Shown here: in pieces, positions 2,948-26,510 of the stretch
How positions within the stretch are numbered: the first letter of the stretch is position 1
Layout: every line of letters starts with the position of its first letter
Origin: a virus
Taxonomy: Duplodnaviria; Heunggongvirae; Uroviricota; Caudoviricetes
IMG/VR virus record: IMGVR_UViG_3300047444_000299
Span: 1-64,000 of that record
Length of the DNA stretch: 64,000 nucleotides
Direction: 5' to 3' (one strand)
Notes under the pieces: model-generated
What the model was told of the DNA's origin: nothing
Databases searched by the model: none
What the model saw: the letters and a program-made list of their open reading frames with translations, nothing else
Made by a program: the position numbers and the translations under genes

Positions 2948-3354
2948 TGCATATGAACGATTTGAATCGATTTAACATTCCAAAGCATTTTATTATCGAT
3001 TGGGATCATGTTGAACGTGTGATGCGTGAACGAAACTCCCCAATGGATCGTGACAATCTGGATCGTTATTTCCAGAAACATCCCGGTGGTGCTGGTGGTA
3101 CAACTACCGCAAGTTCTACCAGCGGTACAGTACCGGTCAGGCAAGTTCCTGCGGTACATGAACAATGGTGGGTGAAGGCTCCGAATCGTGATCGCCTGTA
3201 TCTGGTCAATATTCGTAAGATTTCCAGTGCTATCGTAGAAATCACCGTCGAAGGCCAGACCATTGATGGATTGCGCTCCGGTTGCTACGAACGCGATTAC
3301 CTCAAATTTGTTGAACAACATGTGCAACCGGGTCTGGAACCAAAATCAGTCTAA
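2947..3354 (+). CDS. hypothetical protein
   Basis: 135 aa ORF, ATG overlaps upstream stop. Confidence 0.45.
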   Translation: MHMNDLNRFNIPKHFIIDWDHVERVMRERNSPMDRDNLDRYFQKHPGGAGGTTTASSTSGTVPVRQVPAVHEQWWVKAPNRDRLYLVNIRKISSAIVEITVEGQTIDGLRSGCYERDYLKFVEQHVQPGLEPKSV

Positions 3355-3601
3355 TCTCCCGCGTGGGGCGATCTACATCGGTCGCCCTTCAAAATGGGAG
3401 AATCCATATGAAATTGGAATTGATGGAAATCGCACAGAAGTAATTCAAAAGTTCCGTGCGTACCTGTATTCATCTGGGTTGATCAATGACATTCATGAAC
3501 TCTGTGGTAAGGATTTGATTTGCTGGTGCAAACCGAAGAAATGCCACGGCGACATTTTGATTGAATTGGCTAACCCAAGATTGGGTCAATTCTTTGAGTA
3601 G
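3320..3601 (+). CDS. DUF4326-like protein (GRPSKWxNP...CWCxPxxCHGD motif)
   Basis: conserved motif IYIGRPSKWENPY...LICWCKPKKCHGDIL; start uncertain (overlaps upstream ORF). Confidence 0.5.
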   Translation: MCNRVWNQNQSNLPRGAIYIGRPSKWENPYEIGIDGNRTEVIQKFRAYLYSSGLINDIHELCGKDLICWCKPKKCHGDILIELANPRLGQFFE

Positions 3602-3606
3602 GTAAG

Positions 3607-4629
3607 ATGGATCATATAGACCAAGCGTACATCGGGCGGGTTTCCCTCCGATTAGATCAGTTCAAGCAGAAATCACCCGGACGGTACAACTTTAGATGTC
3701 CTATCTGCGGCGACTCGGCTAAGAATAAGTACAAGGCTCGCGCATGGTTCATCGGCCATGATGGTAAGACGTGGTTCAAATGCTTCAACGACGATACATG
3801 CGGGTCCGGTTTTGGATTCTTTCTGAAACGTCATGACCCAGCGCTGTATTCTGAATGGGCTCTTGAGAAATTCAGGGAATATGGTAACGGCAAGCGTCAA
3901 AGCTCGGTCCAAGAAGCCAAGCCGGTACGTCATATGGGTGATCCAGAATTGGTTCACGATTTACCGACGATTGCAAGCCTGCCACATGATCATTTTGCAC
4001 GGGCTTATATCGAAGACCGGAAGTTACCAACGCATTGGCTAGAAAAGTTGTATTTCTGTGAAAGCTGGAAAGAACTGACTAACCAATTTGAGCCGGATAC
4101 ATACAAAACAATCAAATCTGAGGAAGCTCGGATTGTGATTCCCGCTTACAACGAGAAGCGGGAATTGATCTGCTTTCAAGGTCGGAGTCTCGACCCAGAT
4201 GTGGATGAAAAGAAATACCTAACCGTCAAGGTTCAAGATTGCCTCAAAATCTGGGGCATGGACAAGGCGAAAAAGAATGCGCCGGTATTCCTGTTGGAAG
4301 GTGCATTTGATGCAATGTGTTTAAGCAACACTACGGCGATTCTCGGGGGCACTGCGAACCCTAATGATCTACCGGAAGGGTATGATTGGGTGTTCTCGCT
4401 CGATAATGAGCCGCGAAATGTTTCAGTCCTGCGACGATATCAACAATTGATTGATCGCAAGGCAAAGTTTGTGAACTGGCGTGGATGGCCCTACAAATTC
4501 AAAGATGTCAATGAGTGCATCAAGAATGGGATATCCGCCCGTGAGATTCAGCGTTATTTTGAATCAAATATTGTGTCCGGGCTACAAGCTCAACTTGAAT
4601 TTAATCTTTGGAAGAAAGCACCTTTATGA
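3607..4629 (+). CDS. 61: DNA primase (T4 gp61 family; Zn-ribbon + TOPRIM)
   Basis: N-terminal RCPICGDS..KARAW zinc-binding motif typical of gp61; position after helicase. Confidence 0.85.
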   Translation: MDHIDQAYIGRVSLRLDQFKQKSPGRYNFRCPICGDSAKNKYKARAWFIGHDGKTWFKCFNDDTCGSGFGFFLKRHDPALYSEWALEKFREYGNGKRQSSVQEAKPVRHMGDPELVHDLPTIASLPHDHFARAYIEDRKLPTHWLEKLYFCESWKELTNQFEPDTYKTIKSEEARIVIPAYNEKRELICFQGRSLDPDVDEKKYLTVKVQDCLKIWGMDKAKKNAPVFLLEGAFDAMCLSNTTAILGGTANPNDLPEGYDWVFSLDNEPRNVSVLRRYQQLIDRKAKFVNWRGWPYKFKDVNECIKNGISAREIQRYFESNIVSGLQAQLEFNLWKKAPL

Positions 4630-5189
4630 CAACTCCTATTACCCTCGCTACCGTACCTGTATTCGATCTGATCCGCCAATGGGGTTCCGACCGCAATCTG
4701 ATTCTGGGTGCGACTCCGAAAGATCAGTTCTCGAAACTGATTGAGGAATTCAGCGAAATCACTACCGGCATGGAAGAAAGCAACTACGCCGAAATCAAAG
4801 ACGGTATCGGTGATACTGCGGTGGTTCTGACCATTCTGGCAGCACAGATGGGCCTTACAGTCGAGGAATGTTTCGAATACGCCTCGGGTCTGGGTGCAAC
4901 ATTGGTGTACTTCGAGGACGAAGCTGAGTATTCGACCTATATCCGTGCCCTTGTTACCAACTTCGGTAAACTGGCTACCGGTATCAACAAGAAAAACCTG
5001 CCACTGGCGAAAGCTGGTATTGGTCATGGTCTGGGTCTGGTCTGCGCACTGGCTGGCTGCTTGCTGATCGAAGAAACCTTTGATGACGCTTTGCTGGCAT
5101 CGTACAACGTGATCAAAGACCGTAAAGGTAAAATGATCGACGGTGTATTCGTGAAAGAAGCCGACCTGCATATGGTTGGTGCGCTTTAA
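4626..5189 (+). CDS. MazG-like all-alpha NTP pyrophosphohydrolase (possible gp56-type dCTPase/dUTPase)
   Basis: MazG motifs LIRQWG..KLIEEFSE, C-terminal IKDRKG; ATGA overlap with primase stop. Confidence 0.6.
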   Translation: MTTPITLATVPVFDLIRQWGSDRNLILGATPKDQFSKLIEEFSEITTGMEESNYAEIKDGIGDTAVVLTILAAQMGLTVEECFEYASGLGATLVYFEDEAEYSTYIRALVTNFGKLATGINKKNLPLAKAGIGHGLGLVCALAGCLLIEETFDDALLASYNVIKDRKGKMIDGVFVKEADLHMVGAL

Positions 5190-5833
5190 TGCTGACAGTC
5201 GGTAACGATAGCAAACTGTATGGTTTCGATATCGAAACCTTGGGCACAAAGCCCGGTTGTGTAATCGTATCGGCGGCGTTTCTGGTTTTTGACTTCAACG
5301 AAACAAAAACGTTTGACGAATATGTCAACGATGCCCTTTACATCAAATTCAGTGTGAAGCAACAGAAGGATGAAGGTCGTAAGATCGATCCCGACACACT
5401 GGCTTGGTGGAAACGTCAGGATGATGTGGTTCGTAAAGAACTGATGCCATCTGCGAAAGACGTGAGCATTGAAGAAGGTTCGAAACAGATTCTGGAATAT
5501 CTGTCAGAGCGTGGTGTCAACAAAGGCAGTGAAAAGCGTACCTACCGATTCTGCCGGGGTCAGGATTTCGACATCCCGATTCTGGATGATGCAATGGGTA
5601 CGGTCGGGTTGAAATTGCCGGGTGCCTTCTGGAACTCCCGCGATATCCGTTCGTTCATTTCCGGGGCTTTGATGGATCTGACCGCGACTACGCTGTACAA
5701 GGATGATCGGGAATACAAAACCATTCCGGGTTTCCGTATGCATGATGCACGCCATGACATTGCCAAGGCTGTGATCGAAATGCAGAACTGCGTCAAGCTT
5801 GCAATGGGTCAAATGGAAATTACCGACCTGTAA
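5189..5833 (+). CDS. DEDDh 3'-5' exonuclease (DnaQ-like; DexA-like)
   Basis: Exo I motif FDIETLG, later HDARHD; 214 aa. Confidence 0.65.
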   Translation: MLTVGNDSKLYGFDIETLGTKPGCVIVSAAFLVFDFNETKTFDEYVNDALYIKFSVKQQKDEGRKIDPDTLAWWKRQDDVVRKELMPSAKDVSIEEGSKQILEYLSERGVNKGSEKRTYRFCRGQDFDIPILDDAMGTVGLKLPGAFWNSRDIRSFISGALMDLTATTLYKDDREYKTIPGFRMHDARHDIAKAVIEMQNCVKLAMGQMEITDL

Positions 5834-5837
5834 TGTG

Positions 5838-5866
5838 TTTAGATGAAATGGGATTCGTGATAGAAT
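5838..5866 (+). promoter_or_regulatory. sigma70-like early promoter TTTAGA-N17-TAGAAT
   Basis: upstream of the topoisomerase gene. Confidence 0.5.
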
Positions 5867-5893
5867 CCCTTTTCTATTTTAAAGGAATCACTA

Positions 5894-7720
5894 ATGAGCT
5901 TCAAGATTCTAGATGATAAGGCCCATATCCTGCTACGACCGGGAATGTACTGCGGATCGGTGGTTGAAGAAACCCAATCCTTGTTCCTGAATTATCAGTG
6001 GACAAGCGCGAAATTCGTACCGGGTCTGTTCAAGATCATCAACGAACTGATTGACAACTCAATCGATGAACACATTCGAACCAATGGCGAATTTGCCAAT
6101 GCGATTGATATCAAGGTCGATGCCAAAAGCTTTTGGATCAAAGACAATGGCCGGGGTATCCCTGTTGTCCTAGTCGATGACCTAGACGGCGAGAAAATCT
6201 ATACCCCTGTAGCCGCGTGGTGTAAAACCAAGGCTGGATCGAACTTCGGATCTGATACAGACCGGGATACAATCGGTATGAACGGTGTGGGTTCGGCACT
6301 GGCTAACATATTCAGTTCCAAATTCATAGGTACAACCTCAGACGGCAAAATGCATCTGGTGGTGACATGTGAAGACAACGCGACAATTCGTGATGTGTCG
6401 GTGAAGAAATCGACCAAGAAATTCACAGAGGTGTATATCGAACCAGATTTCCCACGGTTCGGTGTTACAGAAATTGATACAACCCTTATTGATTTGATCA
6501 AATCCCGATTGATCAATTTGGCGATTTGCTACCCGGCGATTACTTTCAAGTTGAATGGTGAATCGATCAAGACCGGATCAGCAAAGGCGTGGGTAGACAA
6601 GTTCGCCCCTGAAAACGTTCTACACCACGATGATTCCATCATTCTCGGGTTCATGAATTCTACGGATGAAGAATTCCGTTGCCTATCACTGGTCAACGGC
6701 TTGAACATCAGTCAAGGTGGTACGCATATTGATTACGTCTTGGGTCAAATCTGTGATGTTCTGCGGGATTTGATCAAAAAGAAACACAAGCTCGAAGTTA
6801 CCCCCGGTCAGATTAAGAGCCATCTACAAGTGGTGTCTGTGATCCGTGGTATGAAGAACATGAAATTCGATTCTCAGACCAAGGAACGAATCACCAACCC
6901 GCGTGGTGAAGTATCTGGTTTGTTTGCGAATGTCAAGTTTGACAAGCTGGCTCAGGGCATCATGAAAAATGATGCATTGATTCTGCCGATCATTCAGGCA
7001 CAGCTAGCCAAACAAATGGCGGCTGATGCTCGGGCGGCGACTCTGGCTGAAAAGGCTTTGCAAGCCAAGAAGGTTGCAAAACACATCCCCGCTACAAGCC
7101 GTAAGGCGAGCGAGAAGACCCTATTCATCACAGAAGGCGACTCTGCTATTGGCCCGTTCATTTCGGCCCGTACACAGGATCTGGCAAAGATTTACGGTGG
7201 GTATCCACTGCGCGGTAAGATTCCAAACATTACCGACATGACCACCACTGAAATTCTGAAAACCAAAGAGCTTGGCGATTTGATCAATATCCTTGGGTTG
7301 AAAATTGGTCAGAAAGCAGACGAACCAGATTACGGTACGATTGCGATCATGACTGACCAAGATATCGATGGATTCTCGATTCAAGGTTTGCTGTTGAACT
7401 TCTTTTGGCTTTGGCCGGAACTGTATCAAAAGAATAGAATCAAAATTGTTCGCACGCCTCTTTACGTGGCAACCAAGAAAGATGAACGGAAATATTTCTA
7501 TGACAAGGCTGATTACGAAGCCGCATCTAGCGGTTTGAAAGGCTATGAAATCCGATACATCAAAGGTCTTGGTTCGCTGCGGAAAACTGAGTACAAAGAC
7601 ATTCTGGCAAACCCAGTGATGATTACTGTACAGATTGATGACCCTGTACTATTTGATGCAATGTATGGCTCATACAATAAATTTGGTGATGCCCGTAAGA
7701 AATTAATTGGTGACGTATGA
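5894..7720 (+). CDS. 39: DNA topoisomerase II large subunit (GyrB-like ATPase + TOPRIM; T4 gp39 family)
   Basis: N-terminal ILLRPGMYCGS, GHKL ATPase and TOPRIM motifs; 608 aa. Confidence 0.9.
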   Translation: MSFKILDDKAHILLRPGMYCGSVVEETQSLFLNYQWTSAKFVPGLFKIINELIDNSIDEHIRTNGEFANAIDIKVDAKSFWIKDNGRGIPVVLVDDLDGEKIYTPVAAWCKTKAGSNFGSDTDRDTIGMNGVGSALANIFSSKFIGTTSDGKMHLVVTCEDNATIRDVSVKKSTKKFTEVYIEPDFPRFGVTEIDTTLIDLIKSRLINLAICYPAITFKLNGESIKTGSAKAWVDKFAPENVLHHDDSIILGFMNSTDEEFRCLSLVNGLNISQGGTHIDYVLGQICDVLRDLIKKKHKLEVTPGQIKSHLQVVSVIRGMKNMKFDSQTKERITNPRGEVSGLFANVKFDKLAQGIMKNDALILPIIQAQLAKQMAADARAATLAEKALQAKKVAKHIPATSRKASEKTLFITEGDSAIGPFISARTQDLAKIYGGYPLRGKIPNITDMTTTEILKTKELGDLINILGLKIGQKADEPDYGTIAIMTDQDIDGFSIQGLLLNFFWLWPELYQKNRIKIVRTPLYVATKKDERKYFYDKADYEAASSGLKGYEIRYIKGLGSLRKTEYKDILANPVMITVQIDDPVLFDAMYGSYNKFGDARKKLIGDV

Positions 7721-9015
7721 CCGAAACTACATTAAGTCAATTTGCTGCTGGCCCTTGGCGCGATTTCTCCCTGTACACAATCAGCGAGCGGGCTATCCCA
7801 TCGCTGATTGACGGGTTCAAACCATCACAGCGATTCATTATGTATTCCGCGTTTAAGAATGCATCAAATCGCTGGCTCAAGGTGTCGTCATTGGCGGCGA
7901 TTGCTGAATACGGCTATCACCACGGCGATGCAGCCGCACAGGAAACCGCTCAAAAGATGGCTGCGGATTGGTCGAACAACCAACCATGCCTGCTTGGCGA
8001 CGGTAACTTTGGCGACCGACTGGTTCAAGAGCCGTCAGCCCCTCGGTATGTGTTCGCACAGGTTCACCCGATGGTTCAAAAGCTGTTCAAAGACAACGAT
8101 CTTTGTCCAGCTCATGAAGACCCGGAACACATCCCACCGAAATACTACCTGCCAATCATCCCGATGGTTTTGGTCAATGGTGTTTCCGGGGTTGCAACTG
8201 GGTATGCGACGGACATCCCACCGTATGCATTAAATGATGTAAAAAACCTTTGCATCAAATATGTACAGGGTAAGGACATCGATTCAATTGATGTAATCCC
8301 GACATTCTACGGCTTCAAGGGTAAGATCGAACGTAACCCAAAAGGTGGGTTTGATCAGGTTGGTATTATCGAACTGAAAGGTAAGACTACCGCCATCATC
8401 AGTGAAGTACCGTTCAAGTACGACCGGGTGAAATACATCGCGGTTCTAGACGAGCTGCAAGAAAACGGGCTGATCCTGCGTTACGACGAGGATTGCGGCG
8501 ACCACGGCTTTAGATTCATTGTGGATTTGAAGCGTGGATTTGATACAAAGTCGAACGAAGAATTGATCAAATTGTTCAAGCTGCGTTCGTCTTTCACAGA
8601 AAACCTTACGGTACTGGATCAGGATCGTAAGCTGCGGAAATTCAGTGGGCCGCATGAGGTTGTTAGGGAGTTTTGCGACTTCCGTTTGCCATTCTATTCC
8701 GATAGGATCGCAAAGCAATTGGCGGAATCGGAACATAATTTCAAGGTAGCGGTTGCAAAGATCAAGTTTATCGGTATGATCCTCGACCAGAAGCTTGATT
8801 TTAAAGGGAAAACTAAAGCGGCACTCACAAAGGAGTTGACCGCTACCTTCGATAAGGATATTGTTCCGAGTCTATTAGGAATGGAATTCTACTCGCTGAC
8901 CAAGGATGAAATTGTAGTCCAGATGGGCAAGGCGAAAGCCCTTGACTCAAAACGGAATTACTGGAAAAATGCGACCCCTGCTGGGTTGTTCATAGAAGAT
9001 TTGGAACAGATTTAA
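7717..9015 (+). CDS. 52: DNA topoisomerase II medium subunit (GyrA-like; T4 gp52 family)
   Basis: GyrA-like N-terminus (SERAIPSLIDGFKPSQRFI); overlaps stop of gp39-like gene. Confidence 0.85.
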   Translation: MTETTLSQFAAGPWRDFSLYTISERAIPSLIDGFKPSQRFIMYSAFKNASNRWLKVSSLAAIAEYGYHHGDAAAQETAQKMAADWSNNQPCLLGDGNFGDRLVQEPSAPRYVFAQVHPMVQKLFKDNDLCPAHEDPEHIPPKYYLPIIPMVLVNGVSGVATGYATDIPPYALNDVKNLCIKYVQGKDIDSIDVIPTFYGFKGKIERNPKGGFDQVGIIELKGKTTAIISEVPFKYDRVKYIAVLDELQENGLILRYDEDCGDHGFRFIVDLKRGFDTKSNEELIKLFKLRSSFTENLTVLDQDRKLRKFSGPHEVVREFCDFRLPFYSDRIAKQLAESEHNFKVAVAKIKFIGMILDQKLDFKGKTKAALTKELTATFDKDIVPSLLGMEFYSLTKDEIVVQMGKAKALDSKRNYWKNATPAGLFIEDLEQI

Positions 9016-16400: not shown

Positions 16401-16424
16401 GGCCACACATTGAGGGGATCAAGC

Positions 16425-17495
16425 GTGAGCAAAGTTAAAAAGTACGACCTAGCGGTTTTTATCGGGCGAATGGCACCACTGCATAATGCCCATCTGGAAA
16501 ACATTCAATTGGCAGATTCGATTGCTGATCGCGTTGTTGTGATTCTCGGCGGTGCTAACGCTCCGCGTGATGAACGAAATCCATTCAGTAACCAAGACCG
16601 TTCTCGAATGGTCGAAGCTGCAACCAGTGAAGCCGGGATCAAAGGTGTTGGCCTAGCCTTCATCAATGACAACCCATCCGATGATTTGTGGGCCGCTGAA
16701 ATCATGCGTCTGGCAAATCGTTACATTATGGGCATAGAGGCTCCGCGAATCGCAATCGTTGGGCACAAGAAAGATGATAGTTCATTCTATCTCGATTTGT
16801 TCCCAACGTGGGAATTCGTAGAAACCGGCGCAAAGATGCATGGCGACGAAGAAATGGCGGCAACATCAATCCGCAAACTGATGTTTGAGGATAATTTCGA
16901 ACCTGCCATGTACATGATGCCAGCATCTGTATACAACTACGTCAATTACGAATTCATCGGCTCCCCAGAGTATGATGCAATCCGTGAAGAATACATGTTC
17001 CACCAAGCTTACCCAGCAAAACGCCGTGCGTCTTACCCGATCAACGACGTTACCGCTGATGCTGTTGTTCTGTGCAAAAGCCACATCCTGTTGATTCGCC
17101 GTAAAAACATTCCCGGTAAAGGCAAACTGGCCCTACCCGGTGGATTCGTCAACACCAACGAAACGGTTGAAGACGGCGCGATTCGTGAACTGGATGAAGA
17201 AACAAAACTGCATGTACCTGAAAAGGTGTTGCGCAAGTCGATCATTGACGAAAAGCGGTTCGATAATCCGAAACGTTCCCTTCGCGGTCGGCTGATGACC
17301 TTCGCATTTACTTTCAAGATTGATACAAATCATGACGGTAGCTTGCCACGGGTTTACGGTTCCGATGACGCTGATAAGGCGTTCTGGGTTCCAATCTCGG
17401 ATATCTCGGCCCCTGAAAACGCGGCTGACTTTTTCGAAGACCACCACAACATCATCATGACCATGATCGGTCGTGCTGCGAAACAACAAAACTAA
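16425..17495 (+). CDS. natV: bifunctional NMN adenylyltransferase / Nudix hydrolase (NatV-like)
   Basis: N-terminal cytidylyltransferase motif (LAVFIGRMAPLHNAH), C-terminal Nudix box (GGFVNTNETVEDGAIRELDEET); GTG start with GAGGGGA SD. Confidence 0.85.
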   Translation: MSKVKKYDLAVFIGRMAPLHNAHLENIQLADSIADRVVVILGGANAPRDERNPFSNQDRSRMVEAATSEAGIKGVGLAFINDNPSDDLWAAEIMRLANRYIMGIEAPRIAIVGHKKDDSSFYLDLFPTWEFVETGAKMHGDEEMAATSIRKLMFEDNFEPAMYMMPASVYNYVNYEFIGSPEYDAIREEYMFHQAYPAKRRASYPINDVTADAVVLCKSHILLIRRKNIPGKGKLALPGGFVNTNETVEDGAIRELDEETKLHVPEKVLRKSIIDEKRFDNPKRSLRGRLMTFAFTFKIDTNHDGSLPRVYGSDDADKAFWVPISDISAPENAADFFEDHHNIIMTMIGRAAKQQN

Positions 17496-17520
17496 TTCAA
17501 TTTTCGAGGAGTTCGAAAGA

Positions 17521-19014
17521 ATGACAGCTTTCAATACAGAGTTTAACAAAGACAACGCAATCCTGATGGATTTCAACCCGGATAACCTGATCCTGAAATC
17601 CGATTCATACAAAGGTGGTCACTGGGAAATGCTCCCGGCTGGCGCTCAGTACCTGTATTCCTACGGGGAATCGCGTGGATCTGATCAATACGCTGTACGT
17701 GGTGTCAACGAAGGTTACACCTACACAGTTTTCCACGGTCTGCAAGGTATTCTGAAACGTCACTTCTCTAGTCGCCTGACTATGAAAGATGTTGATGAAG
17801 CCGAAGAACTGGTAGAGCTGCATATGGGACCGGGCGTTTTCAACCGTAAAGGTTGGGAACAGATTGTTACCCAGTTCAAAGGTAAACTGCCACTGCGTAT
17901 CCGCTGCCTGAAAGAAGGTACGGTTGTTCCTACCGGCAACGTTCTGTGGACTGTTGAAAACACCCACCCGGACTTTGCATGGTTGGTTTCGTACTTCGAA
18001 CCGCTGTTCCTGCAAGCGTGGTATCCAATTACGGTTGCTTCTGTTTCGTACAGCATCCGTCAAGTGGTAGAACAAGCTTTCCGTCAGTCGGTTGACGAAG
18101 GTGTTGGTAGCCAATTCAAGCTTCACGATTTCGGCTATCGCGGTGTATCCAGTAACGAATCGGCCCGTATTGGTGGTGCTGCTCACTTGGTGGCCGGTTG
18201 GATGGGTAGCGATACCATTCAGGCTGTTATCGAACTGAAAATGCACTACGGCGTGAAGAAAGGCGAAATGCCTGCCTTCTCGGTTCGTGCAACGGAACAC
18301 AGTGTTGTGTGTGCAAACTCCAACGCTGACACCCGCGACGATTCCAACGCTCTGGAAATGGCGATCCAACTGCTGGAGAAACACAAGGGCATCGTAGCCT
18401 GTGTGGGTGATACCTATAGCATTCGCCGTTTCGCGGAATGGTGTGCAACCGATCCGATCAAAACCCGAATCATCAATTCCGGTGGTACGTTTGTACTGCG
18501 CCCAGACTCTGGCAACCCGCTGGAAATTCCGGTCGAAATCATCGGTATCCTGATGGCTGGGTTTGGTTACACCGTGAACAGCAAAGGCTACAAAGTCCTG
18601 CCGAGCTGCATCCGAGTTCTGCAAGGCGACGGTATCAACGAATCCAGCATTCGTGGCATCTACGACAATATGTTCAAAAAGTCGCGTATGTACTCTGCTG
18701 ATAACATCGTTTTCGGTATGGGCGGCGCCCTGCTGCAACACTGCGACCGTGATTGGCTCAAATTTGCCATGAAAGCGGCTGCACTGTGCAAAAACGGCAT
18801 CTGGACTGACCTGTTCAAAGACCCGGACACCGATTCAGTTAAACGGTCGAAGAAAGGTCGAGTGACCACGTTCAAAGATTCGAGTGGGAAATACTTCTCG
18901 GATCGTATCGAACTGCAAGAAACCAATCACACAATCGTTGACCAACTGGTTACGGTGTGGGAAGACGGCGACCACATTATGCAGTGGGCGTTTAGCGAAA
19001 TCCGCATCCCGTAA
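17521..19014 (+). CDS. nadV: nicotinamide phosphoribosyltransferase (NAMPT, NadV-like)
   Basis: NAMPT motifs (LKSDSYKGGHW, FGYRGVSS, GSDT); 498 aa; GAGGAG SD. Confidence 0.9.
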   Translation: MTAFNTEFNKDNAILMDFNPDNLILKSDSYKGGHWEMLPAGAQYLYSYGESRGSDQYAVRGVNEGYTYTVFHGLQGILKRHFSSRLTMKDVDEAEELVELHMGPGVFNRKGWEQIVTQFKGKLPLRIRCLKEGTVVPTGNVLWTVENTHPDFAWLVSYFEPLFLQAWYPITVASVSYSIRQVVEQAFRQSVDEGVGSQFKLHDFGYRGVSSNESARIGGAAHLVAGWMGSDTIQAVIELKMHYGVKKGEMPAFSVRATEHSVVCANSNADTRDDSNALEMAIQLLEKHKGIVACVGDTYSIRRFAEWCATDPIKTRIINSGGTFVLRPDSGNPLEIPVEIIGILMAGFGYTVNSKGYKVLPSCIRVLQGDGINESSIRGIYDNMFKKSRMYSADNIVFGMGGALLQHCDRDWLKFAMKAAALCKNGIWTDLFKDPDTDSVKRSKKGRVTTFKDSSGKYFSDRIELQETNHTIVDQLVTVWEDGDHIMQWAFSEIRIP

Positions 19015-20688: not shown

Positions 20689-22071
20689 ATGACCACAAAC
20701 AAAACAAAGGATAGATTAGTGAGCAGTATTCTCGGATTTGAAGTAAACAAGAAACTCGGTTGGATGGCTGGTGTCGCAGTCGCCGCTCTGTTGTTCGTTT
20801 GGCTCATGTTTAGCAGCATGTTCTATTACAACAGCGCTGGCTACATCACTCAGGTTCAAACCAAGTTCCCAACTCAGGGTGAAAAGGTTGTTAGCACTAC
20901 AGGTTACACCTACATCGGTTTCGGTACGGTAACCCCGTGGCCCCGTCAGATGTCGGTTCAATCTGTTCTGGATACATCGACATTGCCGAAAGGTGACTTC
21001 GACGGATTGGGTTCTTCTCTGATTCCAGCCTTCGGCGTAACGTTCCTTGGTGGTGTGGTTGCCACGGTTGATGCAAACGTTCGTGTGGCCCTGCCAGAAG
21101 GTGAAACCTTCCTGCAACTGGCTCGAACCTACCGCACCCCGGACAACTTTGTTCTGCAATCGATCATGCCGGTAATGAAATCTACGCTGCAATCGACTGC
21201 CCAGTTGATGACCGCCGATGATTACTACAACGGACGTTCGACTGAATTCCGTCAGAGCTTTCAAGATCAAATCACCGATGGTTCGTATGTTGTGAGCCGC
21301 GTTGAAAAACAAGTCAAGAACACCCGTGCTGCGGCTCAAGGTGCAATCGTACAGAATGGTACAGCTCAAGGTGAATTCGGCGGCGACACCACTACTGTTG
21401 TGACCACCGAAAAGGTACTCGACCCAAAATCCGGTCTGCCGATTCGTCTGGAACGTCAGTTCTCGAAACTCGGTGTAACCGTAGCCGATGCGAACATTTT
21501 GAACATCGATCCGTCGCCTCAGTTCAAAGAGCGTATGAAAGCGGTTCAACAGTCGCAAGCTGATTTGTCTATTGCTCGCCAAGGTCGTCAGACTGCCGAC
21601 GAACAAAAGAAATTGGTTACCGCCAAGGGTGAAATGGAAGTTGAGCAGAAACGCCAAACTACCATGAAAGATCAGGTTGAACGTACCACCAACGCCGAAA
21701 CCGAAAAGCAATTGGCACTGACCAATGCTAATCGTGAGCAGGAAAAGGCTTCGATTGAGAAAGCAACTTCTCAGATCAAATACGAACAAGCCCAGATTGA
21801 TGCAAAGACCACCAAAGAGAAAGCCGAAGCCGAGGCGTATGCCAAGAAAGCGGTAATCATGGCGGATGGTGCTTTGACTCAGAAACTGGCGGCGCGTGTT
21901 GAAATCGAAAAGGTTTGGGCTAACGCATTCGAACATGCCAAGGTTCCACAACTGGTTATGGGTGGTTCTGGTGATGGCACTGGTCGTCAATCCGATGCAC
22001 AAACCCTGCAACAACTGGTAGGTATCAAAGCTGCGAAAGACCTCATGCTGGATATGAAAGTCTCTCAATAA
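20689..22071 (+). CDS. SPFH/band-7 (flotillin/HflKC-like) membrane protein with long C-terminal coiled coil
   Basis: N-terminal TM helix; SPFH-like core; Ala/Glu/Lys/Gln-rich coiled coil; alternative GTG start at 20720 has a better SD. Confidence 0.65.
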   Translation: MTTNKTKDRLVSSILGFEVNKKLGWMAGVAVAALLFVWLMFSSMFYYNSAGYITQVQTKFPTQGEKVVSTTGYTYIGFGTVTPWPRQMSVQSVLDTSTLPKGDFDGLGSSLIPAFGVTFLGGVVATVDANVRVALPEGETFLQLARTYRTPDNFVLQSIMPVMKSTLQSTAQLMTADDYYNGRSTEFRQSFQDQITDGSYVVSRVEKQVKNTRAAAQGAIVQNGTAQGEFGGDTTTVVTTEKVLDPKSGLPIRLERQFSKLGVTVADANILNIDPSPQFKERMKAVQQSQADLSIARQGRQTADEQKKLVTAKGEMEVEQKRQTTMKDQVERTTNAETEKQLALTNANREQEKASIEKATSQIKYEQAQIDAKTTKEKAEAEAYAKKAVIMADGALTQKLAARVEIEKVWANAFEHAKVPQLVMGGSGDGTGRQSDAQTLQQLVGIKAAKDLMLDMKVSQ

Positions 22072-22113: not shown

Positions 22114-22386
22114 ATGAAAAAGATCCCAAATTTGTTTCTAAAAGGTTTCGCCTCGGTACGTGCTAATGACGGTTTCCAATTTGGTGTAACCGGTCACAGT
22201 ACGATGATCGTCAAGCGACGTTTCACCGAAAACTTCAAATCGCATTACACCAAGTTCGATGATCAAACCGATTATATTCTGGTTCAACCTGTCAACCCGG
22301 TGGCCCTGAAAGGCTTCTTGAATGACATGAAAGGCACCAACGTAAGCGGCGACGAGCTGATTCGTCTTTTGATGGAACAGCTTTGA
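22114..22386 (+). CDS. hypothetical protein
   Basis: ATG immediately after the terminator; 90 aa. Confidence 0.45.
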   Translation: MKKIPNLFLKGFASVRANDGFQFGVTGHSTMIVKRRFTENFKSHYTKFDDQTDYILVQPVNPVALKGFLNDMKGTNVSGDELIRLLMEQL

Positions 22387-22979
22387 TCGTCACCGGTATT
22401 GGCTCTAGGGATATTGATGCAATCCAATTTGAGATTTGTCAGAAAGTCGCTAGAGTCTTCGCTAATAAAGGCTGGCATTTGCGGTCTGGTGGTGCTAGAG
22501 GCGCGGATAGTGCTTGGGAATTGGGATTTTCCGAATCTGATCGAAAGACAATCTATCTCCCAGAACCAAATTTCAACGGTCGCCCTAATACCGGGTGTTA
22601 TAAAGTCCCTGATACATTCGGGGATGTTTGGTTCGAAGCCCGCGAAATAGCAAGCCGACTTCATACCCGATTTGATCAACTCGATGAATTTGGACAGAAC
22701 GCCCATACCCGCAACGTGTTTCAGGTATTAGGTGACGACCTCAAGTCAAAAGCTGATTTGGTCGTCGTGTGTGCCCCACCAAGAGGCAAAACGGTCAAGG
22801 GTGGTACGGCTACAGCGTTCAATCTTGCAAAGGGCTTGAGAATCACCACATTCAATCTCTGGGAGCCCCAAGATCGGGAAGCCCTTTATAAAATCTACGC
22901 ACAGGAATTGATGCATGAACTCGCTCAGCGTTCCAACACCGGTCACGATCTTTTCGCAGCGTGTGTTGATTCACCTTAA
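22383..22979 (+). CDS. SLOG/DprA-like Rossmann-fold protein (standalone)
   Basis: GIGSRD...GWHLRSGGARGADSAWELG...TIYLPEP...VVVCAPP pattern typical of DprA/LOG/SLOG domains. Confidence 0.55.
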   Translation: MIVTGIGSRDIDAIQFEICQKVARVFANKGWHLRSGGARGADSAWELGFSESDRKTIYLPEPNFNGRPNTGCYKVPDTFGDVWFEAREIASRLHTRFDQLDEFGQNAHTRNVFQVLGDDLKSKADLVVVCAPPRGKTVKGGTATAFNLAKGLRITTFNLWEPQDREALYKIYAQELMHELAQRSNTGHDLFAACVDSP

Positions 22980-23579: not shown

Positions 23580-23939
23580 ATGAAAAGTCAAAAAGGCAAT
23601 TCGGCGGTTGAATTACTGATCTACGGCGCAATTCTGATGGTGATCCTGTTGTTTGGCGGTGCCAAAGCGATTCTGTATCTGGCTACCGGCAATGATGTGG
23701 TTGTCACTGTGTCCGACAAGGGCGAACGCTGTAAGTCGGTCGGCAACTGCACGTACCTGATTTATACCGATCATGGCACATTCGAGAACCGAGATTCGTG
23801 GTTGAATTGGAAATTCAATTCGTCCGACATCTACGGCGATATCAAGCGTGATACCAAGTATCAGTTCCATACCAATGGTATTCGCGTACCGTTCCTGAGC
23901 TGGTATCCAAACATTTCTAAGGTACAGGAAGTCAAGTAA
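23580..23939 (+). CDS. hypothetical membrane-anchored/secreted protein
   Basis: N-terminal hydrophobic segment (AVELLIYGAILMVILLFGGA). Confidence 0.45.
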   Translation: MKSQKGNSAVELLIYGAILMVILLFGGAKAILYLATGNDVVVTVSDKGERCKSVGNCTYLIYTDHGTFENRDSWLNWKFNSSDIYGDIKRDTKYQFHTNGIRVPFLSWYPNISKVQEVK

Positions 23940-24421
23940 TGGGAACACTTCTGGGTGGTATTTTCGCAGTCGCCGCATTGGCACATCAATTTGATGTGGA
24001 CAAGGGTGGTAAGGCATACATCCTGCATTGCATTACCGTAATGCAGAATGCTCAAAAGATGGGCGTTACCAGCGAAGTCAGTCTTGCACTCGCGGCTTGC
24101 CATGATGTCAAGGAAGACCACCCGGAACTGCTTCAACATTTATTGATTCATGCCAAAGCCCACGGTGTCATTGACGAATTCGAATCTGGTCTGGATTTAC
24201 TGACCCGGCGCCCTGATGAATCCTATGAGGATTTCATCAAACGCATTATCGCATCGGGCAGGATCGACATTATTCGGATTAAAAAGGCCGATCTTAAACA
24301 CAACTCCTGCATTACAAGGCTCAAGGGCGTGCGTCCTAGCGATATCGCTAGGATTCAGACCTACCACAAAGCTTGGATGGAATTGGAGAACACGGAAAAA
24401 AATCTGAATGTTGTTATCTGA
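23939..24421 (+). CDS. HD-domain phosphohydrolase, SpoT/Mesh1-like small alarmone hydrolase candidate
   Basis: H...LALAACHDVKED motif equals the RelA/SpoT hydrolase LLHDVVED signature; 160 aa, the size of SAH enzymes. Confidence 0.6.
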   Translation: MGTLLGGIFAVAALAHQFDVDKGGKAYILHCITVMQNAQKMGVTSEVSLALAACHDVKEDHPELLQHLLIHAKAHGVIDEFESGLDLLTRRPDESYEDFIKRIIASGRIDIIRIKKADLKHNSCITRLKGVRPSDIARIQTYHKAWMELENTEKNLNVVI

Positions 24422-24632: not shown

Positions 24633-25466
24633 ATGGGCGCAGTTGCGGCAGTTGCAGATATGGGTTGTGCAGAAAGTGTTTGCATTTCCTTTGCAGGTGG
24701 TGTAGTCAAATTTGGTCCGTCCTACGACGATCTGGTACATCAAGCAGTCGATGATGTCAAGGTCATCCAAGGGGATGTCCGCAACCTTCCGAAGAATTTG
24801 ATTAAAATCTTCGACAAGTATGCAACCAAGCAATCGCTCGGCAGCGAGTTTACTCCCTGCGATGATGTCGGAGATAGTGGGTACGACATCGAATTTATCT
24901 CCGAAGTGTTGGGTAAGTGCTTTATTTTCATCGGGAATGGCTCGTTCGCGGAGGTTTTCAGCATCGACCCTGAATGGGTGCTGAAAGTCAACTGCCATGA
25001 CAACTTTCATTCGCCGGTTGACGGTGGGTTTGGGTGGATGAAGACCTGCACCAAGCATCAAGGGAACCCGTACATTCCTAACCTTTCATCGATTGAACAG
25101 CGTGGACATCTGTACATCGCTGTGGTAGAGCATCTGCATTTGGGTGTTGGCCTGTCGTTTGAGGATGGTTCGCTGGGTGACCTGTCAGAAGAATCCTATA
25201 GCCCTGACTTTGATGTAAACCTGTACATGGACGAAGCTGAATTTACATTCGGCCAGTTCATCAAACACAGCCCAAAAGATGCAATTGAAGCAGCTCGGGT
25301 TTACGAATCACATCGTAAAGATGTACGCGGCTGTGATGACATCAGCCGGGACAATGTTATGCACCGGGGCGGGTTTCCGGTACTGACAGACCCGATCTGT
25401 GATACAGGTAGTGGCTATACGCAATTGGAACAAGGCTCGTCGTTTTCATGGATGTCGAAAAACTGA
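24633..25466 (+). CDS. protein-kinase-fold protein 1 (APH/ePK-like)
   Basis: Gly-rich loop IGNGSFAEVF, VLKV lysine, catalytic DDISRDN, metal-binding LTDPI. Confidence 0.5.
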   Translation: MGAVAAVADMGCAESVCISFAGGVVKFGPSYDDLVHQAVDDVKVIQGDVRNLPKNLIKIFDKYATKQSLGSEFTPCDDVGDSGYDIEFISEVLGKCFIFIGNGSFAEVFSIDPEWVLKVNCHDNFHSPVDGGFGWMKTCTKHQGNPYIPNLSSIEQRGHLYIAVVEHLHLGVGLSFEDGSLGDLSEESYSPDFDVNLYMDEAEFTFGQFIKHSPKDAIEAARVYESHRKDVRGCDDISRDNVMHRGGFPVLTDPICDTGSGYTQLEQGSSFSWMSKN

Positions 25467-26059
25467 TTGATTGTCTAATTACTGGTGATTTGCAGGGGGC
25501 ATTCCAACATGCTCCCCGCGTTTTCCACGAAACCCTAGAGCTGCAACGCTTGATGCCGGTGGGTTGGAAATATCACGGAACAGGGTTCTACTCGTCGGTG
25601 ATTGGGCAAATTGATTCTGATAAGGTGTTCAAGCTGTCGTGGAAAGGGTCCGATCCTTGGATTCAGTACGCGGAGCATGTAACCCGGCATATGGATTTAA
25701 ATCCATTGATGCCGAAAATTTATAATCTGGTTGTAGATGATGGTCGAGCAATTGCCTGTATGGAACGGCTCTATGAGTCTGAAATCGTTCATAGTGTTGG
25801 TATGTCGAATGTTGTAAAACTCTGTAGAAATCAATGGTTTAGCAATCAGTTTAAAACTCTGAATGCCAAGCGAAAGAAAATTGCAGATTTTTTGCGATAT
25901 CAGTTTGACATGCGCGGGAACCGGAATTACAATACAAACAACCTAGCAGATATTGTGATTTGGATGGCTGGGTTACCGGATGCGAAAGTGGATTGTCACG
26001 GGTCAAACTGGATGATTCGCACCACCGGACAACTCGTTCTTACCGATCCAATTGGATAA
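25448..26059 (+). CDS. protein-kinase-fold protein 2 (paralog of upstream gene)
   Basis: HGTGFYSSVI G-loop, VFKL lysine, catalytic VDCHGSNWMI (HxDxxxxN), LVLTDPI. Confidence 0.5.
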   Translation: MDVEKLIDCLITGDLQGAFQHAPRVFHETLELQRLMPVGWKYHGTGFYSSVIGQIDSDKVFKLSWKGSDPWIQYAEHVTRHMDLNPLMPKIYNLVVDDGRAIACMERLYESEIVHSVGMSNVVKLCRNQWFSNQFKTLNAKRKKIADFLRYQFDMRGNRNYNTNNLADIVIWMAGLPDAKVDCHGSNWMIRTTGQLVLTDPIG

Positions 26060-26074
26060 ACAAAGGAAATTGTT

Positions 26075-26467
26075 ATGAAAACTTCTATGATGGTATTGGC
26101 ACTTGCACTCGGTTCTCTGGCACTGACAGGCTGTGCCTCGAAACAAGACGAACAGCACAGCGAAGCTCGAACCGATGGTACGCGGGTATTCTACAACTGC
26201 TCGTCCCTCATTCAGAAACAGTTGGTGATCCAACAGTTCAACCAATGCTACCTGAATGGGCCGAAGACCAAAGAAAACCGATTCGACTGTGAAGAAGTCG
26301 CCCGGTCGATGGCATGTGATCGGATGGTGGAAATCACCCGGAGCGAACCAGCTCCGGTTCAAGCACCGGCCCCTGTAGTAGTCTCCCCGGTGGTGATTTC
26401 GCCCCCAGCTTCGGTGGTACAGGTTAACCCTGTTCCAACCCCGGCCCCAGTGGCAACCGTTCAGTAA
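26075..26467 (+). CDS. lipoprotein with Pro-rich C-terminal tail
   Basis: signal peptide + lipobox LALTGC; PAPVQAPAPVVVSPVV tail. Confidence 0.6.
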   Translation: MKTSMMVLALALGSLALTGCASKQDEQHSEARTDGTRVFYNCSSLIQKQLVIQQFNQCYLNGPKTKENRFDCEEVARSMACDRMVEITRSEPAPVQAPAPVVVSPVVISPPASVVQVNPVPTPAPVATVQ

Positions 26468-26487
26468 TACAACCCAACCCCTCAAAG

Positions 26488-26510
26488 GGCGGCGTTAGCC
26501 GCCTTTTTTA
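26488..26510 (+). terminator. rho-independent terminator
   Basis: GGCGGC-GTTA-GCCGCC + TTTTTT. Confidence 0.8.

Follow-up and report, generated by a model that had tools for sequence, protein, structure and literature searches.

The 64-kb stretch of viral DNA analysed here (positions 1 to 64,000 of the IMG/VR record IMGVR_UViG_3300047444_000299; hereafter, the window) contains two adjacent open reading frames (ORFs) that very probably encode kinase-fold proteins of the superfamily typified by T7K, the gp0.7 kinase of phage T7. ORF1 (24633–25466, plus strand) encodes a protein of 277 amino acids (aa), and ORF2 (25448–26059, plus strand) encodes a minimal kinase of 203 aa that belongs to the type represented by the PHROG profile phrog_15752. 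An earlier note on this DNA, made from the sequence alone, had described two adjacent ORFs of 277 and 203 aa; both are called, on the plus strand, at exactly the coordinates given there. The window comes from a T4-like myovirus; among its genes are those for topoisomerase II subunits, a gp41-type helicase, a primase, RNA ligases 1 and 2, a NadR-like protein, and Nampt.

The two genes are physically interlocked. The ATG of ORF2 is situated 19 nucleotides (nt) inside the 3' end of ORF1, and the stretch that the two genes share at the ORF1 stop and the ORF2 start (25448–25466, plus strand, 19 nt) reads ATGGATGTCGAAAAACTGA. The ATG of ORF1 is preceded, 10 nt upstream, by a Shine-Dalgarno sequence (AGGAG). 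We infer that ORF1 and ORF2 are co-transcribed and, because the stop of the first gene overlaps the start of the second, their translation is probably coupled. No further copy of the kinase domain was found in the 64-kb window beyond these two.

The ORF1 product starts with about 25 aa that are modelled with low confidence or as disordered, followed by a helical N-terminal extension (residues ~30–96) and the kinase core (~97–256); after the DPI motif that occupies the position of the DFG motif of other kinases, there is a tail of 22 aa, for which the model confidence is low to medium. In ORF2, a single residue (Gly203) follows DPI, and then comes the stop codon: the chain stops at D200-P-I-G, and the activation segment, the APE motif, and the alphaF–alphaI helices are absent.

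Catalytic motifs and their conservation

All the kinase motifs quoted in the earlier note, namely, the Gly-rich loops, VLKV and VFKL, DISRDN and DCHGSN, and the shared LTDPI, could be located at verified coordinates, all of them on the plus strand. In ORF1, the Gly-rich ATP-binding loop IGNGSFAEVF (24930–24959; residues 100–109, with G101, G103, and S104) is followed by K118, the beta3 ATP-anchoring lysine within VLKV (24984–24986; predicted strand 115–119), the catalytic loop DISRDN (25338–25355; D236–N241, a D-x4-N pattern), and D253-P254-I255 (25389–25397), after which comes Cys256. In ORF2, the Gly-rich loop HGTGFYSSVI (25574–25603; residues 43–52, with G44 and G46) lies between predicted strands 40–45 and 49–54, and is followed by K62, the beta3 lysine within VFKL (25631–25633; predicted strand 59–64), the catalytic loop DCHGSN (25991–26008; D182–N187, with D182 and N187 invariant), and the motif D200-P201-I202 (26045–26053). 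The LTDPI stretch is identical in the two proteins, with D253 of ORF1 corresponding to D200 of ORF2. One detail of the motif assignment has to be amended: the catalytic loop had been described as the HxDxxxxN type but actually is D-x4-N, as neither protein has a His at position -2 relative to the catalytic Asp (G-C-D-D236-ISRDN in ORF1 and A-K-V-D182-CHGSN in ORF2). A His two residues after the catalytic Asp is the family consensus (D-x-H-x-x-N).

The conservation of these residues was assessed in family alignments, each composed of the relatives collected for one of the ORFs together with the homologues from the Pseudomonas phages Milchi and Astolliot. The invariant residues of the ORF1 family are G103, S104, K118, E166, D236, N241, D253, and P254, with G101 conserved in at least 90% of the sequences; those of the ORF2 family are G44, G46, K62, E106, D182, N187, and D200. 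When the two families are merged (19 sequences, with between-family identity down to 17–22%), 13 columns remain invariant, among them those holding the Gly of the G-loop, the Lys, the Glu of the hinge, the Asp and Asn of D-x4-N, and the D-P within TDP. Among 94 remote representatives with a mean column identity of 12%, G46, D182, N187, D200, and P201 (ORF2 numbering) are still invariant, and G44 and K62 are conserved in at least 90%. In these alignments, the motif set goes far beyond what could be attributed to chance resemblance. Both genes are under purifying selection: in comparisons with the closest relatives, the ratio of non-synonymous to synonymous substitution rates (dN/dS) is 0.11–0.16 for ORF1 and 0.09–0.11 for ORF2.

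Relationship to the T7 gp0.7 kinase

Profile searches connect both proteins to T7K. Both ORFs match the profile phrog_15752, which is annotated as 'protein kinase; inhibitor of host transcription': ORF2 with E = 1.3e-12 over profile positions 65–237 of 260, and ORF1 with E = 3.3e-4. The phrog_2828 profile ('serine-threonine kinase'), which represents the family containing T7 gp0.7 (PMC13645617, methods), matches ORF1 with E = 4.3e-3 and yields no match to ORF2 at E ≤ 1. When compared directly with the T7 gp0.7 sequence using hhalign, the ORF1 family aligns across T7K residues 68–227 (95.5%, E = 1.6e-8), such that DISRDN is paired with DMHSGN, and LTDPIC with ITDPVS; the ORF2 family aligns with the single T7K sequence in the N-lobe only (59%). 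In both ORFs, DPI occupies the position of the T7K DPV motif (213–215). Of the two, the ORF1 family is the closer one to T7K itself at the profile level.

To guard against circularity, a leave-out hidden Markov model (HMM) was built solely from 87 remote homologues, leaving out the sequences of the window, Milchi, and T7. Over the full core, this model scores ORF2 at 130.6 bits (E = 2e-39), ORF1 at 104.3 bits (E = 3e-31), and T7 gp0.7 at 99.2 bits (E = 9e-30), whereas the best other ORF of the window only reaches E = 0.08. Among the remote homologues, 90 of 94 match phrog_15752 and 57 of 94 match phrog_2828. Furthermore, a tblastn search of 50,697 phage records with ORF1 retrieves Astolliot and Milchi, followed by T7-like phages of Dickeya, Klebsiella, Erwinia, and Pectobacterium through their annotated gp0.7-type kinases. 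What had been offered in the earlier note as an analogy with T7 Gp0.7 is, by the leave-out HMM, the 95.5% hhalign match, and the tblastn search, true homology, and we have little doubt that ORF1 and ORF2 are kinase-fold proteins of the T7K superfamily.

General-purpose family databases are blind to this relationship. Pfam contains no kinase match for either ORF (E ≤ 10) or for the 94 family members (E ≤ 1e-3), and across Pfam and NCBIfam, no kinase family was found for ORF1, ORF2, the 94 relatives, or T7 gp0.7 itself. Searches of the Protein Data Bank (PDB) sequences with the single sequences or small family profiles gave nothing or marginal matches to the N-lobe of PKC-iota; the 94-member family profile matches only eukaryotic-type kinases and SteC, and does so weakly. 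The arrangement of the motifs had originally been ascribed to aminoglycoside phosphotransferases (APHs), choline kinases, or atypical kinases. We rejected APH/choline-kinase membership because there is no Pfam APH, Choline_kinase, or Pkinase match, the His of the Brenner HxD motif is missing, and so is the C-terminal helical substrate-binding subdomain; the arrangement is of the T7K type instead.

Predicted structures

AlphaFold2 models were built on the merged alignment. The ORF2 model is of high confidence, with a predicted local distance difference test (pLDDT) score of 92.4 and a predicted template modelling (pTM) score of 0.87; for ORF1, the values are 80.2 and 0.79, with residues 1–25 disordered. 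From the N-terminus to the C-terminus, the ORF2 model consists of N-terminal helices (3–34), three strands with the G-loop and K62 (40–64), an alphaC-like helix (70–80), two strands leading to the hinge Glu (91–106), a small helical region (119–174), and the catalytic loop followed by two short strands, D200-P-I-G, and the stop.

In a Foldseek search of the PDB, the ORF2 model yields 123 matches at E ≤ 1e-3, the top ones (MEK1, Nek7, PAK, PKC-iota, and APH) with E = 4e-5 and weaker, whereas the best match of the ORF1 model has E = 1.3e-3. All top 50 matches of both models, with probabilities of 0.87–1.00, are protein kinases or aminoglycoside phosphotransferases, among them MEK1, Nek7, PAK, PKC-iota, ASK1, CDC7, p70S6K, and APH(2''). 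The template modelling (TM) scores of these alignments are 0.26–0.39, and the root-mean-square deviation (RMSD) is high; the resemblance, then, involves the N-lobe and the catalytic core rather than a whole eukaryotic-type kinase domain. Among predicted viral protein structures (BFVD), the best match of ORF2 is A0A7L7SMK1 (E = 8e-10, TMq 0.62), which has been named as a T7K homologue (PMC13645617); the next-best entries belong to T7-like phages and are labelled 'protein kinase'. The suggestion that the two genes encode proteins with the kinase fold is therefore upheld jointly by the profile comparisons, the models with their top 50 limited to kinases and APHs, the PHROG matches, and the links to T7 gp0.7. 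A predicted non-kinase fold had been named as the outcome that would contradict this suggestion; structure prediction gave a kinase-like fold for both ORFs.

The two kinases diverged long ago

In a pairwise BLASTP comparison, ORF1 and ORF2 are not significantly similar (E = 0.38, the ..LTDPI stretch only). The comparison of the two family alignments with hhalign, in contrast, gives 96.2% and E = 2.1e-9, with residues 36–203 of ORF2 aligned to residues 93–256 of ORF1 and all motifs in register. At the level of profiles, and at that level only, ORF1 and ORF2 are recognizable as homologues.

This homology is not that of recently duplicated neighbours. With either family profile, the partner family reaches only 6–24 bits, compared to 50–170 bits for many other members of the superfamily. 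Because each ORF scores closer to other superfamily members than to its neighbour, a recent local duplication was rejected, and the pair represents an old divergence of two subfamilies. The description of the genes as tandem paralogs, accordingly, holds in the broad sense of homology, as indicated by the 96.2% hhalign match, but not in the sense of recent tandem duplication.

Conservation of the two-gene module in a T4-like lineage

The closest cultured relatives of the window phage are the Pseudomonas phages Astolliot and Milchi: the large subunit of topoisomerase is about 75% identical in the comparison with these two, against about 46% for other T4-like phages. Among the 2,044 phage records with a T4-type topoisomerase subunit, only these two contain homologues of the kinase ORFs detectable with tblastn, which fits the remark in the earlier note that T4 has no such kinases. 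A megablast search of the region against phage records gave no match.

We compared nine loci, of which six are on contigs of 61–183 kb from metagenomes or IMG/VR and the other three are those of the window, Milchi, and Astolliot; the protein identities range from 25% to 94%. In all nine, the ORF1-type gene is located immediately upstream of the ORF2-type gene. The stop–start overlap measures 4–19 nt in the six loci where the junctions were examined; in the remaining three, the two genes likewise lie side by side, in reading frames that overlap. In the automatic annotation of Milchi, the ORF2 homologue is labelled 'protein kinase' via PHROGs, whereas the ORF1 homologue is a hypothetical protein in the GenBank records of both Milchi and Astolliot. 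Searches of the literature for Otagovirus kinases, gp0.7-like kinases, and tandem phage kinases yielded nothing beyond PMC13645617. The T7K family, its DPV motif, and the annotation of the Milchi ORF2 homologue are already known; new are the assignment of the ORF1 family, on the evidence of its sequence, to T7K-type kinases, and the conserved overlapping module of two kinases from different subfamilies in a T4-like lineage.

The study that defined the T7K homologues searched with a kinase-domain model of PHROG 2828 at a threshold of E < 1e-10 (PMC13645617). Because the full phrog_2828 profile gives ORF1 only E = 4e-3, ORF1 would probably be missed at this threshold.

Comparison with T7K and other kinases

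ORF1 and ORF2 share the kinase core with T7K (UniProt P00513, PHROG 2828) and with homologues of T7K, JSS1_004 among them. Common to T7K and both ORFs are an N-terminal helical extension, a G-x-G loop, the beta3 Lys, a D-x-H-x-x-N or D-x4-N catalytic loop, and the replacement of DFG by D-P-hydrophobic. The sequence identity of the ORFs to T7K is about 20–26%. In T7K, a hyperpromiscuous kinase that was recently shown to disarm several of the defence systems of bacteria, the DPV (213–215) in place of DFG is considered a hallmark of the family, and every homologue of T7K that has been tested was hyperpromiscuous as well (PMC13645617). The region after this motif is short: the kinase domain of T7K extends about 27 residues past DPV, and 22 residues remain in ORF1 past DPI.

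Beyond the kinase domain, T7K contains the C-terminal shut-off (SO) domain, which is basic and binds DNA (residues 243–359, isoelectric point (pI) 11.3) and which steers the kinase to nucleic-acid-binding substrates and supports its full activity (PMC13645617). ORF1 (pI 4.65) and ORF2 (pI 7.7) lack this domain and have no basic tail. The homologues of T7K have been reported mainly from Autographiviridae, with two additional clusters in jumbophages and a few in prophages, and the latter two groups also are devoid of SO (PMC13645617). These SO-less homologues from jumbophages (Munch, a Salmonella phage, and G17, an Escherichia phage) and prophages contain diverged T7K-type domains, in large genomes (PMC13645617). 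According to the published description, on which the comparison with the window ORFs is based, the third residue of DPx is less conserved in these homologues (PMC13645617). These homologues are reported as single genes, and T7K itself is encoded by one gene in Autographiviridae, in contrast to the conserved two-gene module of the window lineage; the genome that hosts the window pair is that of a T4-like myovirus and measures roughly 180 kb.

Another difference concerns the inhibitory autophosphorylation site of T7K, Ser216, which has been described as conserved in all variants (PMC13645617). At this position, ORF1 has Cys256, and ORF2 has Gly203 followed by the stop codon. The same states, Cys in the ORF1-type and Gly-stop in the ORF2-type protein, are found in the closer relatives of the window phage. 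The homologues of both genes in Milchi (3165–3941 and 3938–4591) and Astolliot have Ser after DPx (DPLS or DPIS). Given this contrast between Ser in Milchi and Astolliot and Cys or Gly-stop in the window group, the regulation by autophosphorylation may differ within the lineage.

Among the PHROG 15752 mini-kinases, which are about 160–220 aa long, ORF2 is a regular member, with the ending at the DP motif that is typical of these proteins. ORF1 is a weak match, with an additional N-terminal extension of about 60 aa and the 22-aa tail. A literature search found no paper on the PHROG 15752 mini-kinases. Eukaryotic-type kinases and APHs have the same bilobal core (Foldseek probability 1.00 for MEK1, Nek7, PAK, PKC-iota, CDC7, and APH(2'')) and the same order of residues, namely, the G-loop, Lys, the catalytic Asp-x4-Asn, and the Mg-binding Asp. 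Unlike the eukaryotic-type kinases, the two phage proteins have DPI in place of DFG and lack the activation segment, APE, and the alphaF–alphaI helices, in addition to the absence of any Pfam match and the TM-scores of 0.26–0.39.

Proposed function and alternatives

We propose that ORF1 and ORF2 are both active protein kinases that would be co-expressed and would phosphorylate host proteins to promote host takeover or to counter defence, a reading to which we assign a probability of about 70%. Each protein is predicted to comprise a short N-terminal helical extension, a five-stranded N-lobe, a hinge, and a remnant of a small helical C-lobe, with D-x4-N and the Mg-binding D-P-(I/V) motif. Under this scenario, both would be constitutively 'on' Ser/Thr (or possibly Tyr) kinases, presumably produced in the early or middle phase of infection. 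The DPI motif, together with the complete loss of the activation segment in ORF2, would render them constitutive and poorly selective, which extends the argument made for DPV in T7K. Host proteins, and possibly phage proteins, would be phosphorylated such that the cell is taken over and its defence blunted, as is the case with T7K and JSS1_004. In the absence of the SO domain, the bias of T7K to DNA-bound substrates would be expected to be lost. Because two different subfamilies are retained side by side across the lineage, the two kinases might have complementary substrates or regulation instead of being redundant.

Several observations weigh against this interpretation. The equivalent of the Ser216 autophosphorylation site is Cys in ORF1 and is missing in ORF2. 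The SO domain is absent from both ORFs, so the range of targets may differ greatly from that of T7K; because the jumbophage and prophage homologues have lost SO as well, this domain marks the T7 subgroup rather than the superfamily. ORF2 contains nothing past the DFG equivalent; in T7K, the one relative that has been characterised, the kinase domain goes on for about 27 residues more. The lack of a kinase family in Pfam and NCBIfam belongs here, too, and with APH structures and protein kinases scoring about equally in Foldseek, the fold itself does not settle the substrate class.

The first alternative is that only one partner is catalytic and the other one is a regulator or scaffold, or that the two form an obligate heterodimer, with coupled translation matching their amounts. 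The gene order and the stop–start overlap are strictly conserved across the loci, and two different subfamilies always occur together in the lineage, which favours this reading. Moreover, 24 of the 146 top representatives of the family, from other phages, have 2–5 kinase domains per chain, so that such domains can function next to one another. However, the catalytic residues are all invariant in both families, unlike in a pseudokinase, and none of the 24 multi-domain representatives is a Rosetta-stone fusion of an ORF1-type with an ORF2-type domain. We regard this alternative as unlikely.

Slightly more improbable would be a second alternative, in which the kinases are active but are aimed at the phage's own proteins or at a few specific host proteins, such as factors of transcription or RNA turnover, and so time the infection programme instead of broadly opposing defences. 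The classical work on T7 gp0.7 identified RNA polymerase, RNase III, and RNase E as targets, which is reflected in the PHROG description; the DNA-proximal bias of T7K comes from the SO domain that ORF1 and ORF2 lack; and the pair is surrounded, in a T4-like genome, by genes for replication and nucleotide metabolism. Yet, all T7K homologues tested were hyperpromiscuous (PMC13645617), and the missing activation segment and P+1 region would speak against sequence-specific recognition.

A third alternative, that the two proteins are small-molecule kinases of the APH/choline-kinase type, with an antibiotic, a nucleotide signal, or a metabolite as the substrate, is improbable. The APHs do appear in the Foldseek list for the PDB with E-values similar to those of protein kinases, and a conserved neighbour of the pair resembles a (p)ppApp hydrolase, which places nucleotide-signal metabolism next to the two genes. 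The sequence relatives, however, are T7K-type protein kinases rather than APHs, the alignments with APH structures have an RMSD of 14–17 Å, and the features that led us to reject APH/choline-kinase membership (no Pfam match, no HxD His, no C-terminal helical substrate-binding subdomain, with ORF2 ending at DPI-G) apply here with equal force. The idea of a small-molecule or antibiotic substrate, which the earlier note had put next to that of host proteins, thus finds no support.

Finally, it is hardly conceivable that the motif resemblance is coincidental and the proteins are not kinases: Pfam and NCBIfam return nothing and the BLASTP comparison of ORF1 with ORF2 is not significant, but the leave-out HMM separates the two ORFs (E = 2e-39 and 3e-31) from the best other ORF of the window (0.08), the catalytic residues do not vary although the mean column identity is 12%, and the confident models match kinase folds only.

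A large family of minimal and multiplied kinases

Word-indexed homologue searches, including those with the merged alignment, were of limited sensitivity and detected only 18 close relatives; it was an exhaustive HMM search that opened up the family. Using the merged alignment, this search recovered 3,886 representatives of clusters at 50% identity with E ≤ 1e-3, of which 435 have E ≤ 1e-10 and 9 have E ≤ 1e-30. Previously, 46 clusters of T7K homologues have been reported (PMC13645617), and going by these profile matches, the superfamily is far larger than that. Single-domain representatives (n = 122) have a median length of 209 aa, and in 76 of the 122, the chain continues for no more than 6 residues past the domain match. 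Because most of the single-domain representatives end in this manner, the termination of ORF2 at the DP motif is normal for the family and not a truncation artefact.

Apart from the single-domain forms, 24 of the 146 top representatives contain 2–5 near-complete kinase domains in one chain. We also observed single polypeptides composed of 4–6 tandem mini-kinase domains (proteins P0019, P0020, P0026, P0028, and P0029), in which each domain ends with (V/T/S)DP(I/V), and a repeated 'NELxGYKxNPIY' linker connects the copies. In IMGVR_UViG_3300048042_000013 (locus L008), positions 4347–8096 form a stop-to-stop reading frame of 1,250 codons with six domains, and the same is found in locus L009. No description of phage multi-kinase proteins with 4–6 T7K-type domains was found in the literature. 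Other viral contigs carry adjacent separate genes for mini-kinases: three in locus L010 (4983–6931) and likewise in L011; two nearby genes in L012 (4992–5597 and 6131–6742) and likewise in L013; and again adjacent T7K-type mini-kinase genes in L016 (4977–6302). With two or three adjacent mini-kinase genes present in these contigs, tandem multiplication recurs beyond the lineage of the window phage.

We tentatively raise the possibility, itself rather doubtful, that the ORF1–ORF2 pair is one case of a hitherto undescribed phage strategy of deploying 'batteries' of T7K-type mini-kinases. If the substrate ranges of the copies are complementary, such multiplicity would widen the coverage of host defences or resist counter-evolution of the host, and the loss of the whole activation segment would provide a structural reason for promiscuity that does not depend on a sequence motif.

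Whether or not the 'batteries' idea holds, a T4-like lineage harbours two deeply diverged T7K-type kinases as an overlapping gene pair, whereas homologues have been reported almost only in T7-like phages. The pair also exposes a large family of minimal kinases of about 200 aa, without anything past the DFG equivalent and often in tandem or fused. If active, these proteins would be natural minimal kinase scaffolds and candidates for broad anti-defence factors in phages relevant to the biocontrol of plant-associated Pseudomonas, and they would offer a direct test of promiscuous phosphorylation as a general phage strategy. As cultured relatives exist, gene deletion and phosphoproteomics are feasible now.

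Genomic neighbourhood

Upstream of the kinase pair, the window contains a gene for an HD-domain protein of 160 aa (23939–24421, plus strand) that resembles alarmone hydrolases: it matches phrog_990 (E = 1e-28) and the PDB entry 7smg, '(p)ppApp hydrolase' (E = 5.9e-15). It also matches the hydrolase domains of RelA/SpoT. ORFs of 156–158 aa are found at the position of this gene, directly or nearly directly 5' of the pair, in Milchi, Astolliot, and three of the contigs (L004–L006). Based on these matches, the HD protein is likely to be a phage alarmone hydrolase and could act against defences of the toxSAS type or against the stringent response.

Farther upstream, all on the plus strand, are genes for a 460-aa SPFH/Band_7-domain protein (20689–22071; phrog_11908) and a DprA-like/SLOG-like protein (22383–22979; phrog_768, E = 1e-53), which keep the same relative position in related loci. 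The NadR-like cytidyltransferase/NUDIX gene and the nicotinamide phosphoribosyltransferase gene (16410–19014, plus strand) make up an NAD+ salvage pair that could counter NAD-depleting defence systems. A thioredoxin-like protein is encoded among the genes flanking the kinase pair as well. Taken together, these flanks (the HD protein, the DprA/SLOG-like protein, and the thioredoxin-like protein) look like takeover or accessory genes.

Downstream, the next gene after ORF2 (26075–26467, plus strand) encodes a protein of 130 aa without a match to any family searched. Because it has an N-terminal signal peptide and the lipobox LALTGC, this protein is a probable lipoprotein. Directly 3' of this gene lies a strong hairpin resembling an intrinsic terminator (26484–26507, plus strand; a 10-bp stem with 6 G-C pairs, followed by a T-run), identified by a consensus scan and by inspection of the sequence; it is the probable 3' end of the transcript that carries ORF1, ORF2, and the 130-aa ORF. 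Within the 3' end of ORF2, there is an 11/12 match to a sigma-70-like promoter (TTGACA-17-TACAAT, 25905–25933), which could separately drive the putative lipoprotein gene.

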